DNA of 38,377 nucleotides from Armatimonadia bacterium (GTDB taxonomy: Bacteria > Armatimonadota > Zipacnadia > Zipacnadales > UBA11051). Below are positions 25,440-32,942 of this stretch, piece after piece. Position numbers and translations under genes: made by a program. The stretch covers positions 1-38,377 of the forward strand of contig JBDKRC010000054.1 of assembly GCA_039683575.1 (NCBI GenBank), in the 5' to 3' direction. The notes below the pieces were generated by a model. The model saw only the letters and a list, made by a program, of their open reading frames with translations. It made no database searches and was not told where the DNA came from. How positions within the stretch are numbered: the stretch's first letter is position 1; the number at the start of each line of letters is the position of its first letter.

Positions 25440-26422
25440 AGCCGCGGCACCAGCTTTGCCAGAGCCTCTTTGAGAGTTAGCAGCAGCTTTGCCAGCAGGT
25501 CGCCGAGTTCGCCCTCATAGTCAAAGCCCGCCGCGCGAGCATGGCCGCCCCCGCCGAACCCCCGGGCGATGTCGGCCACATCCACCACGGGCGCACGCAG
25601 GCTCACCTGCCACTGCCCCTCATGCCCGGGCGCCTTCACAAGCACCGCCACTTGCTGCCCCTCAACCTGCTTGAGAAAGTCTACAATACCTTCGGTGTCG
25701 CCGACGGTGCTACCGGTTTCGAGGTAGTCCTGCGGTCTCAACACCGTCCATGCGATGCGGCCCTCGTCCGCCACCTGCAGGGCCTGCAAGGCCCGCCCGG
25801 TCAGCTTCATTCGCCCCAGGGGACGGGTTTCACTCACCAGTGCCGCCACCGCAGAAGGCACGACTCCGCGTGCCACCATCTCCGCAGCAACTGCGAACGC
25901 CTCTTCGTTGGTGTTTTCGAAACGAAAAAAACCGGTATCCGTAGCGGTACCGGTGTAGAGACATGTCGCAATGTCACCCGTGAGGTCCCAGCCCAGCGCC
26001 CGGAGCAGCCGGCGCACGAGCAGGGCCGCGGCGGCTGCCGATCCGTCCACATACTGCACCTGCCCGAAAGCAGCCCCGCTGTGGTGATCTATCTGAACAA
26101 CGACTTCGGAGGCATTCATGGCCTCCTGCAGTTCGCCCAGCCGGTCAGCACCGTCACAGTCCACGTAGATAGCAACATCGGGCCGGCCCTGGATGGCCTG
26201 AGCCAGCCGGTCTGCCTGCGGAAGCCAACGGTAGTGCCGCGCCACGTCGGTCGGGGCCACGATCTGCACTTGCTTGCCCTGCGCCACCAACGCCTGGTAC
26301 AAGGCCAGGCCGGCGCCCAGAGCGTCTCCGTCAGGCCCTTTGTGCAGGCCTATTACGAAACTGGCCCTCGTTTGCAGGAGGGCCAGCAGTTCCGGCGGCG
26401 GAGGGAGCAACTGCTTCGTCAT
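25436..26422 (-). CDS. nrnA: DHH/DHHA1 phosphoesterase (NrnA-like oligoribonuclease/pAp phosphatase)
   Basis: H..PDGDALG, IDHH, TDTG.F, GGGGHARAAG; conserved position after rbfA. Confidence 0.88.
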   Translation of the reverse strand: MTKQLLPPPPELLALLQTRASFVIGLHKGPDGDALGAGLALYQALVAQGKQVQIVAPTDVARHYRWLPQADRLAQAIQGRPDVAIYVDCDGADRLGELQEAMNASEVVVQIDHHSGAAFGQVQYVDGSAAAAALLVRRLLRALGWDLTGDIATCLYTGTATDTGFFRFENTNEEAFAVAAEMVARGVVPSAVAALVSETRPLGRMKLTGRALQALQVADEGRIAWTVLRPQDYLETGSTVGDTEGIVDFLKQVEGQQVAVLVKAPGHEGQWQVSLRAPVVDVADIARGFGGGGHARAAGFDYEGELGDLLAKLLLTLKEALAKLVPRL

Positions 26423-26928
26423 TGCTCTTTCTCCGCCTCCTCATCTTCATCAAAATCTTCGTCGTCGAGGTCGTCTTCTTCGTCCCAGTCTTCGTCCTCG
26501 TCGGGTTCTTCTTCTGCTGCTGCTGCTCCAGCCTCCGCCGCCACGGCCGCGGCTTCCTCTGCTGCGTGCGCTTCAAGTGTGGGCGCCAGCGTCTCATGTT
26601 CGCGCTGAAGCGCCTCAGCCATCCGCTGGGCCTTGACAGCCGTCTCGTCGTATATGAAGCGAAGCTTGGGGATGTAACGCAGTTCGATCGTTTCGGAGAG
26701 GCGGGCGTTCATGTACTTGCGCGCCCGCAGCAGGCCTTTGATGCTGTTCTTGACCTGTTCTTCGTCGCCCAGCACACTGAAGAACACCTTGGCATGCCTC
26801 AGGTCAGAGGAGACCTCGACGTCCGTGATGGTCACGAAGCCGATGAGAGGGTCGTGGATGTCGCGACGAAGCATCTGTGCAATCTCGTCGCGGATCAGTT
26901 GCGCCACACGTTCCAACCGCAGATTCAT
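26419..26928 (-). CDS. rbfA: ribosome-binding factor A with long acidic tail
   Basis: R.ERVAQ.I, DP.IGFVTITDVEVS.DLRHAKVF, LRYIPKLRF.YD. Confidence 0.93.
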   Translation of the reverse strand: MNLRLERVAQLIRDEIAQMLRRDIHDPLIGFVTITDVEVSSDLRHAKVFFSVLGDEEQVKNSIKGLLRARKYMNARLSETIELRYIPKLRFIYDETAVKAQRMAEALQREHETLAPTLEAHAAEEAAAVAAEAGAAAAEEEPDEDEDWDEEDDLDDEDFDEDEEAEKEQ

Positions 26929-26949: not shown

Positions 26950-27237
26950 CTAGAGATACTCACTCTCGCTGCTCTCAACCACCGCCCGGGGCTCACTTTC
27001 GATGAAGTTGAGCACCGTATCAAGCATCCGAGTGACGTGCTGCAGGTCATTTCCCACCGTCGTGGCTGCAATGACCGCCCGCCGGTGGTTGTCGAGCGCG
27101 TCAATCTCCGCCACCGCCACGTTGAACTTGTTACTCACCCGCGAGAGCAGGCTCGACACCACGCTCCGCTTATCCTTCAGAGACATGGCATCAGGAACGT
27201 AAAGTTCAACCGTCAGTAACCCCACAATGGCATTCAT
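26950..27237 (-). CDS. ylxP: DUF503 family protein (YlxP-like)
   Basis: SLKDKRSVV, KFNVAVAEI; located between infB and rbfA. Confidence 0.88.
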   Translation of the reverse strand: MNAIVGLLTVELYVPDAMSLKDKRSVVSSLLSRVSNKFNVAVAEIDALDNHRRAVIAATTVGNDLQHVTRMLDTVLNFIESEPRAVVESSESEYL

Positions 27238-27273: not shown

Positions 27274-29328
27274 TTAGGCAGTCCGCGCCGGCATCTTCCG
27301 CTCGGTAGCGACTTGCATCGTCGCTTCCACGACATCTCCCGGCTTCCAGCCGCGGTAGTCGCCGGAGGCGATACCACACTCGCTCGGCGCCTGCACCAGT
27401 GACACGTCCTGGTTGAAGTGCCGCAACGAGGTCAGCTTGCCGCGGAAGATCTCCTGCCCGTCGCGAGTTACCACGATGTCGGCGTTCGGTCGCAACTCGC
27501 CATCCTGGACGCGCGACCCGGCGACAAAGCCCACACGGGAGATCTTGAAGATCTGCAGGACCTCGGCTTTGCCGAGGTACTTGGTCTCGATGACGGGCTC
27601 GAGCATGCCGTAGGCAGCCGCCCGGAAGTCATCCAGCACCTGGTAGATGATGCGGTAGGTGCGGACTTCCACACCCTCATTGGCCGCCGCTGCCATGACC
27701 GCGGCATCGGCTTCAACATGGAAGCCAACCACGATGGCCTTGGAGGCTGTGGCCAACAGGACATCGGACTCAGTCACAGCACCCACACCGGTGTGCAGGA
27801 TGTTGACCTTGACTTCGTCCAGCTCGTCGTTGAGCTGCAGCAGCGAGCTCTCCAGAGCCTGTGCCGAACCCCACGCGTCTGCCTTGATGATTACGTTGAG
27901 GTCCTTGACCATGCCGCCTTGCAGCGTGTGGTAAAGCTCACGCAGGGCCGTTCCCTGCGCGCCAACCATGTCACGGTCGCGCTGTTGCATGGCATTGCGC
28001 TCGGCTATGACGCGCGCTTCCTTCGGGTTGGGAGCCTTGATCATCAGGTCGCCAGACTCCGGCACGTCCGACAGGCCGATGACCTCAGCCGGATGCCCCG
28101 CCTCGACGCTCTTGATGGTCTTGCCAAGCCAGTTGCGGAGCCGTCGCACGCGCCCATGAGCGGTGCCGCAGACCACGACGTCGCCGACCTTCAGGCTTCC
28201 GTTGCGCACGAGCACCGTCGCCACCGGCCCCTGGCTCTGATCCAGGCGCGCCTCGACGACGATACCAGCCATGTCAGCGTTCGGGTCGGCCCACAGTTCC
28301 TGAACTTCAGTGACGATGTGCAGGATCTCCAGCAAGTCATCGAGGCCCTGACCGGTCTTGGCGGAGATCGGGACCACAACAGTGCTGCCGCCCCACTCTT
28401 CGGGAACCAGTTCGTGCTCCAGCAACTGCTGCTTGACGCGGTCCACGTTGGAGTCCGGCAGGTCCACCTTGTTGACTGCGACCACGATCGGAACGTTCGC
28501 GGCCTTGGCGTGGTTGATGGCCTCTACCGTCTGCGGCATGATGCCGTCATCCGCCGCCACGATGATAACCGCCACATCAGTGATCTGCGCTCCACGGGCC
28601 CGCATCGCCGTGAAGGCGGCGTGGCCCGGAGTGTCGAGGAACACCAGCGGCTTGTTGTCATGTACAATCTCGGAGGCACCGATATGTTGGGTAATCCCGC
28701 CGGCCTCGCCCGCCGCGACCTGCGTGCTGCGCAGCGCGTCCAGCAGACTTGTCTTGCCGTGGTCGATGTGCCCGAGCACGGTCACAACCGGGGGAACGTC
28801 AATGGCGTCGGGAGGACGGTTGCCAGAGGGGCGCTTTGCCATGTCGGGGATGGACTTGACAAGCTGCGTCTCCTGCTCGACCGACTTCTCCTGCATGGCC
28901 GCCAGATGCTCTTCCAGTTCCATGAGGCCTTCATGCAGGCGAGGCGGCCCACCCGGCAGACGCCCTTCGCGCTCTTTGCGCTCCCGCTCTTCTTTGTCCT
29001 TGGCGGCGCGTTCGGCAGGCGTCGGGGTGGGTACCGGGGCCTTCTCCGGAGCTTTCTTCTCCTCGACGGGAGGCGCGACAACCGCTACAGGCTTGGTGGC
29101 GGCAGCGGCTGCCTTCGCCGCAGCTTCTTCCTCGACCCGCTCTTCCTCCTGTGCCTTCGCCTTTACCGCCTGCTCATTGATGATCTCACGTACCGTATTC
29201 GCCGTTTCCTCATCAATGGCGGACGCCTTGGTGACGTTCTCGACACCAAGCTTGGACAGAGCGGCCAGCAGAGCTTCGGTCTGCAAGCCCATCTCCTTGG
29301 CCAGTGAGAATACCCGTACTTTCGCCAA
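27274..29328 (-). CDS. infB: translation initiation factor IF-2
   Basis: [42 protein letters not shown] start after GGAGGT. Confidence 0.96.
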
Positions 29329-29454
29329 AATAAGACACCTCCGCGGAATCTCCGCGTGCTTTCCGCCTCACCACCAGGCAACGTCAGGCGGTAACCCAAC
29401 CCGCCGTCACAATCATCATCTCACTCGGACGGGCGTCGCCCGCCTTACCTGAGT

Positions 29455-30723
29455 CTATTCGATCTCCGTCAGCGTCCCCTCGCCACCGCTGAGGAGCTCG
29501 CGCAGCATTGTCGCAACTTCCTCGGATACCGTGCTGGCGTGGCTGGAAACCTCCACGCCCTCTTCCTGCAGGATCTCCACGAGGTCCTTGCTCTCGACTT
29601 CCAGTTCCTTGGCCAGCTCGTAGATGCGGAACCGCTTCTCCTTGGGAGCCTCGGCCGCTGCAGCCGCCGCTGCGGCTTCCACTGCCGCCGCCTCGGGCGT
29701 TTCGGCCCACTGGCTCTCGCTGCGGATGTCGATGCGCCAGCCGGTGAGCTGCGCCGCCAGCCGCACGTTCTGTCCGCGCCGGCCGATGGCCAGTGACAAC
29801 TGGTTGTCCGGAGCGATGACCGTGGCCGACTGGTCTTCGAGGTTAGCGATGACCTGGCTCACGCGCGCCGGGCTGAGGGCGCTCTTGAGGTATTCGCGGA
29901 TGTCTTCGTTGTAGCGAACGATGTCAATCTTCTCGCCACGGAGCTCATCAACAATCGCCTGCACCCGCGCGCCGCGATGCCCGACGCATGCGCCGACAGC
30001 ATCCACCTGCGGGTCGGTTGAGACTACAGCGACTTTTGACCGTGCTCCGGGCTCACGGGCAACCGACTTGATCTGCACGATCCCGTCGAAGACTTCTGGC
30101 ACTTCGAGCTCGAACAGCCGCGTTACCAGCGCCGGATGGGTTCGCGATACGACAATCTGCGGCGTCTTGGTGGTTTTGCGGACGTCGAGCAGGTACACCT
30201 TGAGCCGGTCGTTGAAGCGGTACGGCTCGCCGGGGATCTGCTCATGCGCCGGCAGCAGCGCTTCGGCCCGACCCAACGCCACGAAGACGTTGCGGGCATC
30301 CTTGCGCTGCACTTCGCCGGTCACAACCTCACCCATGCGGTGGGAGAACTCGTCGAAGACGATCTCGCGCTCCGCTTCGCGAATCCGCTGCATGACCACC
30401 TGCTTGGCAGTCTGGGCGGCGATGCGGCCGAAGGTCGCGGTATCTACCTCGTGCTCTTCATAGCGCAAAAGCCCCGCAGCCTCGAGTTCCTCGAGGTCAA
30501 CCGGCTCGGCGCCCTCGGGTTGCTCAGGCAGAATCGGGGTCCTGACCATCAGACGCACCGTCCGCGCCGCCTGGTCAATCTGCAAGCGAACCTCTTCAGT
30601 TGACCCAAAGTGCTTGCGGTATGCCGACGCCATCGCCGCCTCTACCGTCTGCACCAGCGAGGCCATGGGAATGTCTTTTTCCTTCTGAAGCTGCTCGAGA
30701 GCCTCAATGAACTCTCCGTTCAT
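29455..30723 (-). CDS. nusA: transcription factor NusA with C-terminal IF2_N-like extension
   Basis: [13 protein letters not shown]1 domain, AREPG.RSKVAV, GEKIDI, LSLAIG..GQNVRLA..LTGW.IDI; ATG 30723 after GGGGAG. Confidence 0.95.
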
Positions 30724-30788
30724 CAGCGTCAACTCCCCAATAATGATGGGAAAACCTTAGTTATCTCCGCACTTGGATCTCTATCTGC

Positions 30789-31271
30789 CTAGTCCGTCTC
30801 ATCCCACTCATGAAGCAAATGGGCCTGCTCCACAGTGTCCAGCGCCAGCGACCGGGGACCCTCATCCACCGCCACGACCACGTCCTCGCCCTCAAGGCCC
30901 TTGAGCTCTCCCCGCAGCGTCGCCCGCTTGCCCTCGGCATCCCGGTATGTCACCGCCACCTTACGCCCTGCAAACCTCGTGAAATCCTCGTCCCTCGTGA
31001 TCGGCCGATTCACCCCGGGCGATGACACCACCAGGTTATACCGTCCTGGCACGGGATCCAGTACGTCCAGCAGTACCGACAACCGCTCTGTGACATACTG
31101 GCAGTCAGCCGTCGTGACCCCGCCTGGCTTGTCAATGTATACCGATAGCGTCTGGTTCCCGGGCGGCCCCCCGAACTTCATCAGCACCAGTTCGTACCCG
31201 AAGTTGCGCAGCGTCCGCTCGACTTCTTCCTCGATCTGTTCCACCACGGGATGTTTTGGCGACTGCTTCAT
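30789..31271 (-). CDS. rimP: ribosome maturation factor RimP
   Basis: L.VYIDKPGGV...DC, Y.L.VSSPG..RP; first gene of the nusA operon. Confidence 0.92.
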   Translation of the reverse strand: MKQSPKHPVVEQIEEEVERTLRNFGYELVLMKFGGPPGNQTLSVYIDKPGGVTTADCQYVTERLSVLLDVLDPVPGRYNLVVSSPGVNRPITRDEDFTRFAGRKVAVTYRDAEGKRATLRGELKGLEGEDVVVAVDEGPRSLALDTVEQAHLLHEWDETD

Positions 31272-31284
31272 ATGCCCACCCCAC

Positions 31285-31321
31285 AAAACAAAAAGGAGTG
31301 GGCTCGTGCGACGCCCACTCC
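31285..31321 (-). promoter_or_regulatory. rimP leader terminator/attenuator hairpin
   Basis: Minus strand GGAGTGGGC-gtcgcacga-GCCCACTCC-TTTTTGTTTT between promoter and rimP start. Confidence 0.7.
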
Positions 31322-31384: not shown

Positions 31385-31556
31385 CCCCTGCAGACCTATT
31401 TCTGCCCCCTGGCTCATGAAATGTTCAATATCCTGATTCAGATGTTATGAAAGCAGGAAATCAGAGCCAGGCAGGGAATACCCTCCTCCAGACATGGCCC
31501 AACCCTCGCTTACCTGGATGCGGTACCGTCGGCGATGATCGATGGAGGTGGTTTTG

Positions 31557-32942
31557 ATGGCAACCGAGGAAATGACTGCTGAACGCACCAGAGCCTTCTA
31601 CAAGTTCAAGGAGGCCGAGCAGCACGCAGCCAAGCATCACTACGAGCAGGCGATGAACTCCGCCCGCGACGCCCTGGAGGTTGACCCCACCTTCGTCGAG
31701 GTGCGTTTCTGGATTGCCGACCTGCACGTGCGTCTGGACAGCCCCCGCAAGGCCTCGCTCGAATACCAGGAGATCATCCACCAGAACCGGGATAATCAGC
31801 AGGCCTGGGAGAAGCTGCGCGCGATTGACCCCGCCTCCGCCGAACGCCTCGAGCGCCTCCACGACATTGCTCCGGATCCCTTTGTAGTACAACGCACCTC
31901 CGAGAATGCTGTCAGTGAAGACCTGGACGACCTTGGCGGCCTGGCGGATGAATTTGTGCCCGAGGAAGAAGAAATTCTCCCCCAACATGAGCCTGCGGAG
32001 TTCGACTCCCTCGAAGATCTCTCCGGTACTGACGCCATCAAGACGGAACTGCAGGAAGGCGTTGGGGCCATAGTGGGTGTAACCACGGCTGCGCCCGAAC
32101 CGCAGCCCTCGGGGCCGGCGGACTGGCTGTATGAGGAAGACCTGAAGTATCGCGACAAGATGGACCACAACCCGGTCTTCGCCAAGCTCCTGCCCAATAT
32201 CATGGAGTTCTGGAAAGACAGTGACTCCTGGGAAACGGCTATCAGCGGCTCAGTGCACCTCGATGAGCATCGCCATCCTGAGATAGTCCAGGTCTGCCAG
32301 GAAGCTGCAGACGCCCTCGGCGTGCCGCACTGGACAATGTATGTCTGCCCGGAGCGCCGCATGGTCTGCTGCATCACCCGTGGCGATCCGCCAACCATTT
32401 CGCTGACGACAGGTGTGATGAACAGTCTCTCCCATGCAGAACAACTCTTTGCCATAGGCCGCTTCAGCGCCATGGTTGCTGCTGGACATGTGCCATACCT
32501 GCAGATGACCATGATGGCTCTTGAGCGCAGCCCACGCAGCATCACCGACGTGGAAATCGACATGCTCGAACTGCTCAAGCACCACCACGGGGGCTGGGAC
32601 GCCGGCGTACATCGTGAGGACCGGATCAAGCTCGGAGCCCTCGCCCACGCCTGGCAGCAGCGCTCGGAGCTTTCGGCGGATCGCGGCGGACTGATCTGCT
32701 GCCGGGACCTCGAAGCTGCTCTGAACGGCATTGCCAAGACGACGGCCCATGACGCAACCGCGGCCAGTACGCTCACGTGGAAGGCCCTCGCGGAGAAGCA
32801 CAAGGGCGAGGATCCCGGCGCTCTGGCTGCCATACCACCGAAGGAAGACCCGTCACGGCACGAGGGGTACGCCGTCTATCGCATTCAGATGCTCAGATGG
32901 TGGGCCAAGACCCCGGCCGGGCAGGCCTATCTGACGGGGTAG
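31557..32942 (+). CDS. TPR-containing protein with degenerate M48-peptidase-like C-terminal domain
   Basis: TPR-like N-terminus (A...ALEVDP), acidic linker, I.LTTG, W...SELSADRGGL; no HExxH; ATG 31557 after GGAGGT. Confidence 0.75.
   Translation: MATEEMTAERTRAFYKFKEAEQHAAKHHYEQAMNSARDALEVDPTFVEVRFWIADLHVRLDSPRKASLEYQEIIHQNRDNQQAWEKLRAIDPASAERLERLHDIAPDPFVVQRTSENAVSEDLDDLGGLADEFVPEEEEILPQHEPAEFDSLEDLSGTDAIKTELQEGVGAIVGVTTAAPEPQPSGPADWLYEEDLKYRDKMDHNPVFAKLLPNIMEFWKDSDSWETAISGSVHLDEHRHPEIVQVCQEAADALGVPHWTMYVCPERRMVCCITRGDPPTISLTTGVMNSLSHAEQLFAIGRFSAMVAAGHVPYLQMTMMALERSPRSITDVEIDMLELLKHHHGGWDAGVHREDRIKLGALAHAWQQRSELSADRGGLICCRDLEAALNGIAKTTAHDATAASTLTWKALAEKHKGEDPGALAAIPPKEDPSRHEGYAVYRIQMLRWWAKTPAGQAYLTG

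Follow-up and report, generated by a model that had tools for sequence, protein, structure and literature searches.

The NusA protein encoded in the stretch of DNA analysed here (38,377 nucleotides, contig JBDKRC010000054.1 of an Armatimonadia bacterium, assembly GCA_039683575.1; hereafter the window) ends in a conserved IF2_N domain, paralogous to the N1-type domain with which the adjacent IF2 begins. The fusion is old and stable, and in the genomes sampled it is restricted to a single uncultured class of the Armatimonadota. We propose, with a probability of roughly one in three (0.35), that this tail is a putative acidic docking module which, by analogy with the AR repeats of E. coli NusA, would mimic IF2 N1 and share a site on the KH2 domain with it.

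Architecture and fold of the NusA tail

The nusA gene lies on the minus strand (29455..30732) as an open reading frame of 425 amino acids, whose numbering we use throughout for NusA residues. The true start is probably the ATG at 30721-30723, giving 422 amino acids, because the homologues and the Atlas record begin at residue 4 of this frame (MNGEF). The product is identified as NusA by TIGR01953, with 384 bits against a cut-off of 253.4 over residues 7-341; scores against the full-length NusA models NF006645 and NF006642 are far under their cut-offs. Pfam finds the order NusA_N (7-123), S1 (131-192), KH (228-340) and IF2_N (369-412). The RNA-binding domains KH1-KH2 (29713..30051, minus strand, approximately residues 228-340; KH_5 at 228-294, KH_2/KH_1 at 278-340, KH_2 alone at 278-331) are followed by a flexible linker rich in Ala, Glu and Pro (residues 344-366; 29635..29703, minus strand). 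Then come the N1-type IF2_N domain (residues 367-414; 29491..29634, minus strand) and, as the very end of the protein, an LLxGGEGTLxxL motif with acidic residues (415-425; 29458..29490, minus strand).

A first-pass annotation had read an IF2_N-like domain at 29480-29640, behind the last KH domain and an Ala-rich linker. The nusA frame does end exactly in the sequence quoted there, and PF04760 recognizes the domain with 46.1 bits (E 4e-12; gathering cut-off 25.3) in the whole protein, 49.0 bits in the isolated 71 amino acid tail, and 48.7 bits in a genome-wide scan that places it at 29497-29628, inside the interval first proposed. Among Pfam matches at E-values up to 1, NusA has no member of the HhH or AR families, and thus no E. 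coli-type AR1/AR2 repeats by this measure. As a side observation, the tail (29455-29670) weakly matches positions 19-68 of NCBIfam NF052588, a mycobacterial RNase E model (E 0.0018), which hints that the N-terminus of that RNase E may hold an IF2_N-like module.

An AF2 model built from an alignment of 13 tails shows a strand-helix-helix-strand-helix order (E16-18, H19-25, H30-39, E50-52, H53-64), that is, the beta-alpha-alpha-beta-alpha fold of IF2_N, with pLDDT 83-90 in the domain blocks. The top PDB fold matches found by Foldseek are all the N/G1 domain of Thermus thermophilus IF2 (4B43, 4B3X, 4B48, 4KJZ, 3J4J; rmsd 1.5-1.8 A over 51-54 columns, 46-49% identity, best E-value 5e-4), with 4B43 and 4B3X at 1.5 A, E 5e-4 and a probability of 1.00. 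The 30S-bound N2 sub-domain of Pseudomonas aeruginosa IF2 (7UIU, 7UNV) is matched as well, with an rmsd of 1.2-1.3 A at 23% identity. A phmmer search of PDB sequences with the tail returns the same Thermus domain (E 6e-8), so sequence and predicted structure both uphold the initial domain assignment. The N-terminal domain of IF2 has been classed as a circularly permuted winged helix, among the RNA-binding versions of that fold (PMC2848206).

In the full-length AF2 model of NusA (pTM 0.61) the core, KH1-KH2 included, has pLDDT of approximately 90, the linker 51-67 with values below 50 at 357-364, the tail domain 73-82, and the GGEG motif (residues 417-420) below 50. The model thus shows the tail as an independently folded domain on a flexible tether. 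It assigns the tail no confident fixed position, which is a weak readout since it comes without contact or PAE data. In the ESM Atlas we found only generic NusA or IF2_N clusters and nothing on the combined architecture.

The gene order on the minus strand is rimP (30789-31286), nusA, infB (27274..29328), a DUF503 gene (26950-27237) and rbfA (26419-26928). The nusA stop codon is a TAG at 29455-29457. It is followed by a 126-nucleotide spacer (29329..29454, minus strand, read from the DNA) that holds the infB ribosome-binding site, GGAGGTG, ahead of a TTG start at 29328. Because each gene has its own stop or start signals, nusA and infB are separate genes. The IF2 product has 684 amino acids, with a Pfam IF2_N match only at residues 1-51 (DNA 29176-29328). 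As the first-pass annotation had suggested by eye, the NusA tail can be aligned with this start: BLASTP gives an ungapped alignment of tail residues 13-61 to IF2 residues 3-51 (35% identity, 67% positives, E 1e-8), and the two are paralogous. The 6.2-Mb genome has no IF2_N match besides these two.

By Pfam and by an HMM trained on the lineage, the IF2 of the window has a single N1-type IF2_N and lacks the G-proximal (N2-type) copy; TIGR00487 matches it from model position 83 onward only. The IF2 proteins of this order share a layout in which a single N1-type IF2_N is followed by approximately 115 low-complexity residues, with no N2-type copy; across the window and loci L003-L016, N2 is canonical in just the two lineages of the class whose NusA is tail-less. 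Two further observations concern the neighbours. RbfA has approximately 60 residues beyond its Pfam domain (4-107) that are Ala-rich and then extremely acidic (26419-26600), resembling the acidic NusA tails of Armatimonadota. A divergently oriented reading frame of 466 amino acids adjoins rimP (31542-32942, plus strand); its sole family match is a weak one to TPR_19 at residues 30-94.

Distribution and origin of the fusion

Is the fusion peculiar to this one assembly? It is not: the best 120 of 8000 scored candidate homologues that were listed (67-99% identity) all carry PF04760 in their precomputed annotation, and the named sources among them are Armatimonadetes/Armatimonadota or "candidate division WS1." An assembly artefact or frameshift was considered and rejected, given the separate stop and start signals and the same architecture in 120 of the 120 listed homologues, from independent assemblies.

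Within its own class, approximately 55-57 of 61 genomes have the domain on NusA. The PF04760 scan of these genomes counted as NusA-type a frame of approximately 420-570 residues (or truncated by the contig) distinct from the IF2 frame. Wherever both share a contig, the NusA-type frame precedes the IF2 match by a few hundred bases. Direct matches number 55 of 61, one of them under the Pfam cut-off; the genomes without one are G227, G236, G240, G194, G203 and G206. We fetched 40 loci and analysed them with the lineage-trained HMM, which finds the tail in 13 of the 15 loci from the class. It shows that G227 and G236 (family f43) have tails too divergent for Pfam at the threshold used, finds no tail on the NusA of G194 and G203, and in G206 the expected position runs off the contig. 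The tail-less lineages inside the class are L013 and L014.

Outside the class, a NusA gene precedes infB in 24 of 26 loci from other Armatimonadota, and the lineage HMM finds IF2_N on none of these 24; the early suggestion that the fusion is lineage-specific is borne out. (The two other loci, L017 and L020 of family f30, have no nusA in the 2.4 kb upstream of infB.) The tail-less NusA proteins of the phylum end in acidic low-complexity stretches of 34-133 residues (L013, L014, L022, L027-L031, L040, L041), with no match to the lineage IF2_N HMM and nothing domain-like on reading. An acidic C-terminus is therefore a property of NusA across the phylum, within which the IF2_N domain was added.

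Searching 185,579 species genomes for the tail pattern gave 45 confirmed loci. Two are NusA with a tail, one of them from an "uncultured Armatimonadia bacterium." The remaining 43, from Clostridium, Lachnospiraceae, Planctomycetota and others, match through the N-terminus of IF2, and none of the 41 NusA C-termini present at those loci carries IF2_N. Another phylum, the one to which a Syntrophothermus MAG belongs, likewise shows no NusA-type match in 61 genomes. One pair of matches there, in two frames 1.6 kb apart, is read as a split IF2, as a sister genome has both in one frame.

IF2_N does occur in many other architectures (P0123, P0126, P0129, P0132, P0141, P0150, P0169, P0200, P0222). Hosts other than IF2 include Ser/Thr protein kinases, with the domain at either end, a KH_1 protein of 1364 amino acids, an R3H protein, an O-antigen-ligase-like membrane protein, and proteins of two to four tandem IF2_N repeats.

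Supplements aside, we found no description of IF2_N on NusA in the literature. As far as we found, the NusA-IF2_N fusion is visible in database domain annotations and apparently undiscussed in print. A 2026 preprint compares NusA C-terminal length with IF2 N-terminal length (r = -0.18); its available text does not mention IF2_N on NusA, and its Extended Data list NusA C-terminal extensions that could include such proteins (Fer et al., 10.64898/2026.02.08.704698).

Which of the IF2_N subtypes does the tail represent? Outside the class, IF2 has two IF2_N copies in 24 of 26 loci. In a tree of 84 IF2_N sequences (56 columns; finer branching unresolved), the G-proximal IF2 copies stand apart, with 98% SH-aLRT support, from the distal IF2 copies and the NusA tails. 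With the exception of one row, the distal copies in turn group together to the exclusion of the tails (94%). The residues R369, K375 and R411 are a signature common to the tails and IF2 copy 1 and absent from copy-2-type sequences. By tree and signature alike, the sequence of the NusA tail is that of an N1-type (distal) IF2_N. Constraining the 13 tails to one clade gave a likelihood better by 36 log units (p-AU 0.927), and a single origin of the tails is thus not rejected by these sequences. Since nusA and infB adjoin, the simplest route would be that the 5' end of infB was duplicated locally onto the 3' end of nusA. A shift of the gene boundary, in which loss of the nusA stop captured the first copy of IF2, is unlikely, and duplication is preferred to it, because four families of the class have the tail alongside a two-copy IF2.

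Conservation, charge and accompanying changes

We aligned 28 NusA homologues that are 68-90% identical overall (alignment A1). The linker ahead of the tail domain varies freely in length and sequence, with gapped columns. In the tail itself 17 positions are invariant (R369, Y371, E372, L373, A374, L377, L384, E386, I387, Q389, S397, H398, S400, A407, L414, G416, G417) and, in the conserved C-terminal motif, G419 and T420 are nearly so. Between the window and L003 the tail is 73% identical, against 64% for IF2 N1 of the same pair. Family f43 keeps the motif LLxGGEGTLxxL(E)AG despite a degenerated IF2_N part, and the GGEGTL motif is weaker in more distant families of the class. A six-frame translation of its own genome has no second carrier of GGEGTL; NusA is the sole match.

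The tail domain is strongly acidic, with net charges from -10 to -4 around a median of -6 (n = 13), compared with +1 for IF2 copy 1 of the same class (n = 15); IF2 copy 1 in the rest of the phylum has -2, and copy 2 has 0. Whole NusA tails run from -6 to -25. The NusA-specific acidic positions are E386 (100%), E390 (92%), E391 (69%), E394 (62%) and E418 (77%), and they cluster on helix 2 and just beyond.

Two changes elsewhere accompany the tail. The GxxG loop of KH2, in the window G-R-R-G at residues 317-320 (29773..29784, minus strand; R318 and R319 invariant in A1), reads G[RK][RK]G, that is GRRG or GKKG, in 13 of 13 tail-bearing NusA proteins. Its second x is basic in none of 26 tail-less Armatimonadota NusA proteins, including the two tail-less lineages of the same class. 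Both the dibasic loop and the tail may date from one and the same branch, in which case their co-occurrence is one event and not 13. The second change concerns IF2: none of the 13 tail-bearing lineages examined has a canonical G-proximal IF2_N in IF2 (absent in 9, very divergent in 4), while both tail-less lineages of the class keep it.

Possible roles of the tail

Fusion of partners that are separate elsewhere is a classic sign of a functional link, and the fusion described here suggests a built-in link between transcription and translation initiation. The reading we favour, at about one chance in three, draws on the fold and conservation of the domain, its N1-type paralogy and the E. coli contact described below, and also on the NusA-specific acidity, the lack of AR repeats, the dibasic KH2 loop and the flexible tether. 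A folded N1-type IF2_N would have arisen once, as a duplicate of the N-terminal domain of IF2 encoded immediately downstream; it sits on its flexible linker inside the phylum-wide acidic C-terminal tail of NusA. There it would take the place of E. coli AR1/AR2 as an acidic module for protein docking and regulation, as a built-in copy of the very IF2 domain that binds the KH2-AR1 part of E. coli NusA. In free NusA the tail would fold back onto the basic surface with which KH2 binds RNA, with its dibasic GxxG loop, which only tail-bearing NusA proteins have. Once NusA is on a transcribing polymerase, nascent RNA or the N1 domain of IF2 itself would dislodge the tail. With one docking site shared by NusA and IF2, transcription would be tied to translation initiation.

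The model for this reading comes from E. coli, where IF2 N1 (residues 1-50) and residues 57-90 are reported to bind the C-terminal part of NusA. The evidence comprises a pull-down, in-cell cross-links at positions 13, 50 and 88, and the loss of the interaction when NusA-deltaC is used; in addition, an AF3 model puts IF2 N1 on KH2-AR1 (PMC12297416). The authors of that report note a lack of conservation both in the IF2 N-terminus and in the NusA C-terminus, and ask how general the contact is in other species (PMC12297416). Several points speak against docking of this kind. The E. coli contact needs the AR region, which is absent here, and an equivalent site may not exist. The acidity may be inherited from acidic low-complexity tails such as those of NusA in other classes. 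The closest solved relative of the tail is a domain reported on the 30S subunit and not on NusA (PMC9192638). A complex prediction that combined the NusA tail (360-425) with NusA KH1-KH2 (195-345) and IF2 1-60, run without controls, scored 0.13 against a mark of 0.32 and counts neither way.

The main rival, which we rate nearly as probable, is the ribosome tether suggested in the first-pass annotation. The tail would dock at the shoulder of the 30S subunit, at helix 16 of 16S rRNA, as the G-proximal IF2_N does. It would thereby hold RNA polymerase-bound NusA by the mRNA entry site of the 30S or 70S ribosome, or on nascent 16S rRNA, and serve transcription-translation coupling or co-transcriptional 30S assembly. 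By both sequence and fold the closest solved relative is Thermus N/G1 (47-49% identity, rmsd 1.5 A over 53 columns), and P. aeruginosa N2 in 7UIU/7UNV also matches (1.2-1.3 A). The latter is bound to helix 16, and Thermus N/G1 is said to interact with the 30S subunit and to have an N1-like sequence (PMC9192638). The operon rimP-nusA-infB-DUF503-rbfA is one of 30S biogenesis factors, and the lack of a canonical G-proximal IF2_N in the IF2 of tail-bearing lineages, set against its retention in tail-less ones, would fit a transfer of the anchoring function to NusA. The charge of the NusA copy (-4 to -10), followed by an acidic motif, speaks against direct RNA binding, and the surface that is conserved specifically in NusA is the acidic face of helix 2, an unlikely RNA contact. 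The reported helix 16 contacts of P. aeruginosa N2 are R259, the loop S277-V278-K279 and an extension that wraps the minor groove (PMC9192638); the corresponding extension of NusA is acidic. The loop reads E378-V379-E380 in NusA and G-V-E in its relatives, with Glu380 at the position of Lys279. The Lys279 equivalent is also not conserved in the N2-type copies of Armatimonadota, so that mapping of contact residues does not discriminate.

It is also conceivable, if improbable in our judgement, that the NusA IF2_N pairs with IF2 N1 as like with like and so recruits IF2 to the elongation complex without an AR region. In this class NusA and IF2 each have an N1-type domain and are encoded side by side, and since proteins with two to four tandem IF2_N copies exist (P0123, P0126), the domain may tolerate self-association. 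We know of no evidence that IF2_N dimerises, and in family f43 the NusA copy has lost conserved N1 residues that IF2 keeps. A contact between IF2 and NusA as such does exist in E. coli (PMC12297416).

Equally improbable is a tail with no docking function, a tolerated relic of local duplication whose sole effect is to give an acidic NusA tail one more soluble folded unit: NusA of other Armatimonadota classes manages with only low-complexity acidic tails, L013 and L014 in the same class have none of the domain and the f43 domain is degenerated in sequence, but 17 positions are invariant at overall identities down to 68%, surface-type residues (R369, Y371, E372, S397, H398, S400) among them, the tail is at least as conserved as IF2 N1 (73% against 64%, window and L003), and NusA has its own conserved acidic face and GGEGTL motif.

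Implications and comparison with known systems

The 2025 report of E. coli IF2 N1 binding to a non-conserved NusA C-terminus is the sole direct evidence for coupling at initiation (PMC12297416). A class-wide NusA in which a conserved copy of IF2 N1 type stands where the AR repeats would be gives independent, evolutionary evidence that NusA and N1 cooperate. The C-terminus of NusA appears as a place where different docking modules get swapped in. A bolder idea, which we regard as rather improbable, is that IF2_N is an address module that moved from IF2 to NusA, IF2 having lost or degraded its own G-proximal 30S anchor and polymerase-bound NusA having gained the domain. NusA itself would then keep the 30S subunit, or IF2, close to the transcript as it emerges, and translation initiation would be physically started by the transcription complex. 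On this view the fusion would also be a natural "Rosetta stone," and the NusA-IF2(N1) link of E. coli would be ancient and widespread and not an enterobacterial peculiarity. In practical terms the tail, at approximately 60 residues, should be a well-folded and easily expressed reagent for finding the binding partners of N1-type domains.

Among known systems, AR1-AR2 of E. coli NusA resembles the tail in being an acidic folded module linked after KH2. For the AR region, autoinhibition through AR2-KH1, binding of alpha-CTD and a requirement in IF2 Domain I binding are reported (PMC12297416). The two differ in that AR1-AR2 consists of two helix-hairpin-helix domains, whereas the tail is a single permuted winged helix (IF2_N) of unrelated sequence. 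The N1 sub-domain of IF2 (residues 1-50 of E. coli IF2alpha) belongs to the same Pfam family and tree subtype as the tail and has R369, K375 and R411 in common with it, although the tail sits on NusA, is far more acidic, and has an acidic face and GGEGTL motif of its own. The best structural matches to the NusA tail, Thermus N/G1 and P. aeruginosa N2, are reported to lie directly before the G domain of IF2 and to contact 16S helix 16, with a basic extension (PMC9192638); the NusA copy, in contrast, lies after KH2 and has an acidic extension.
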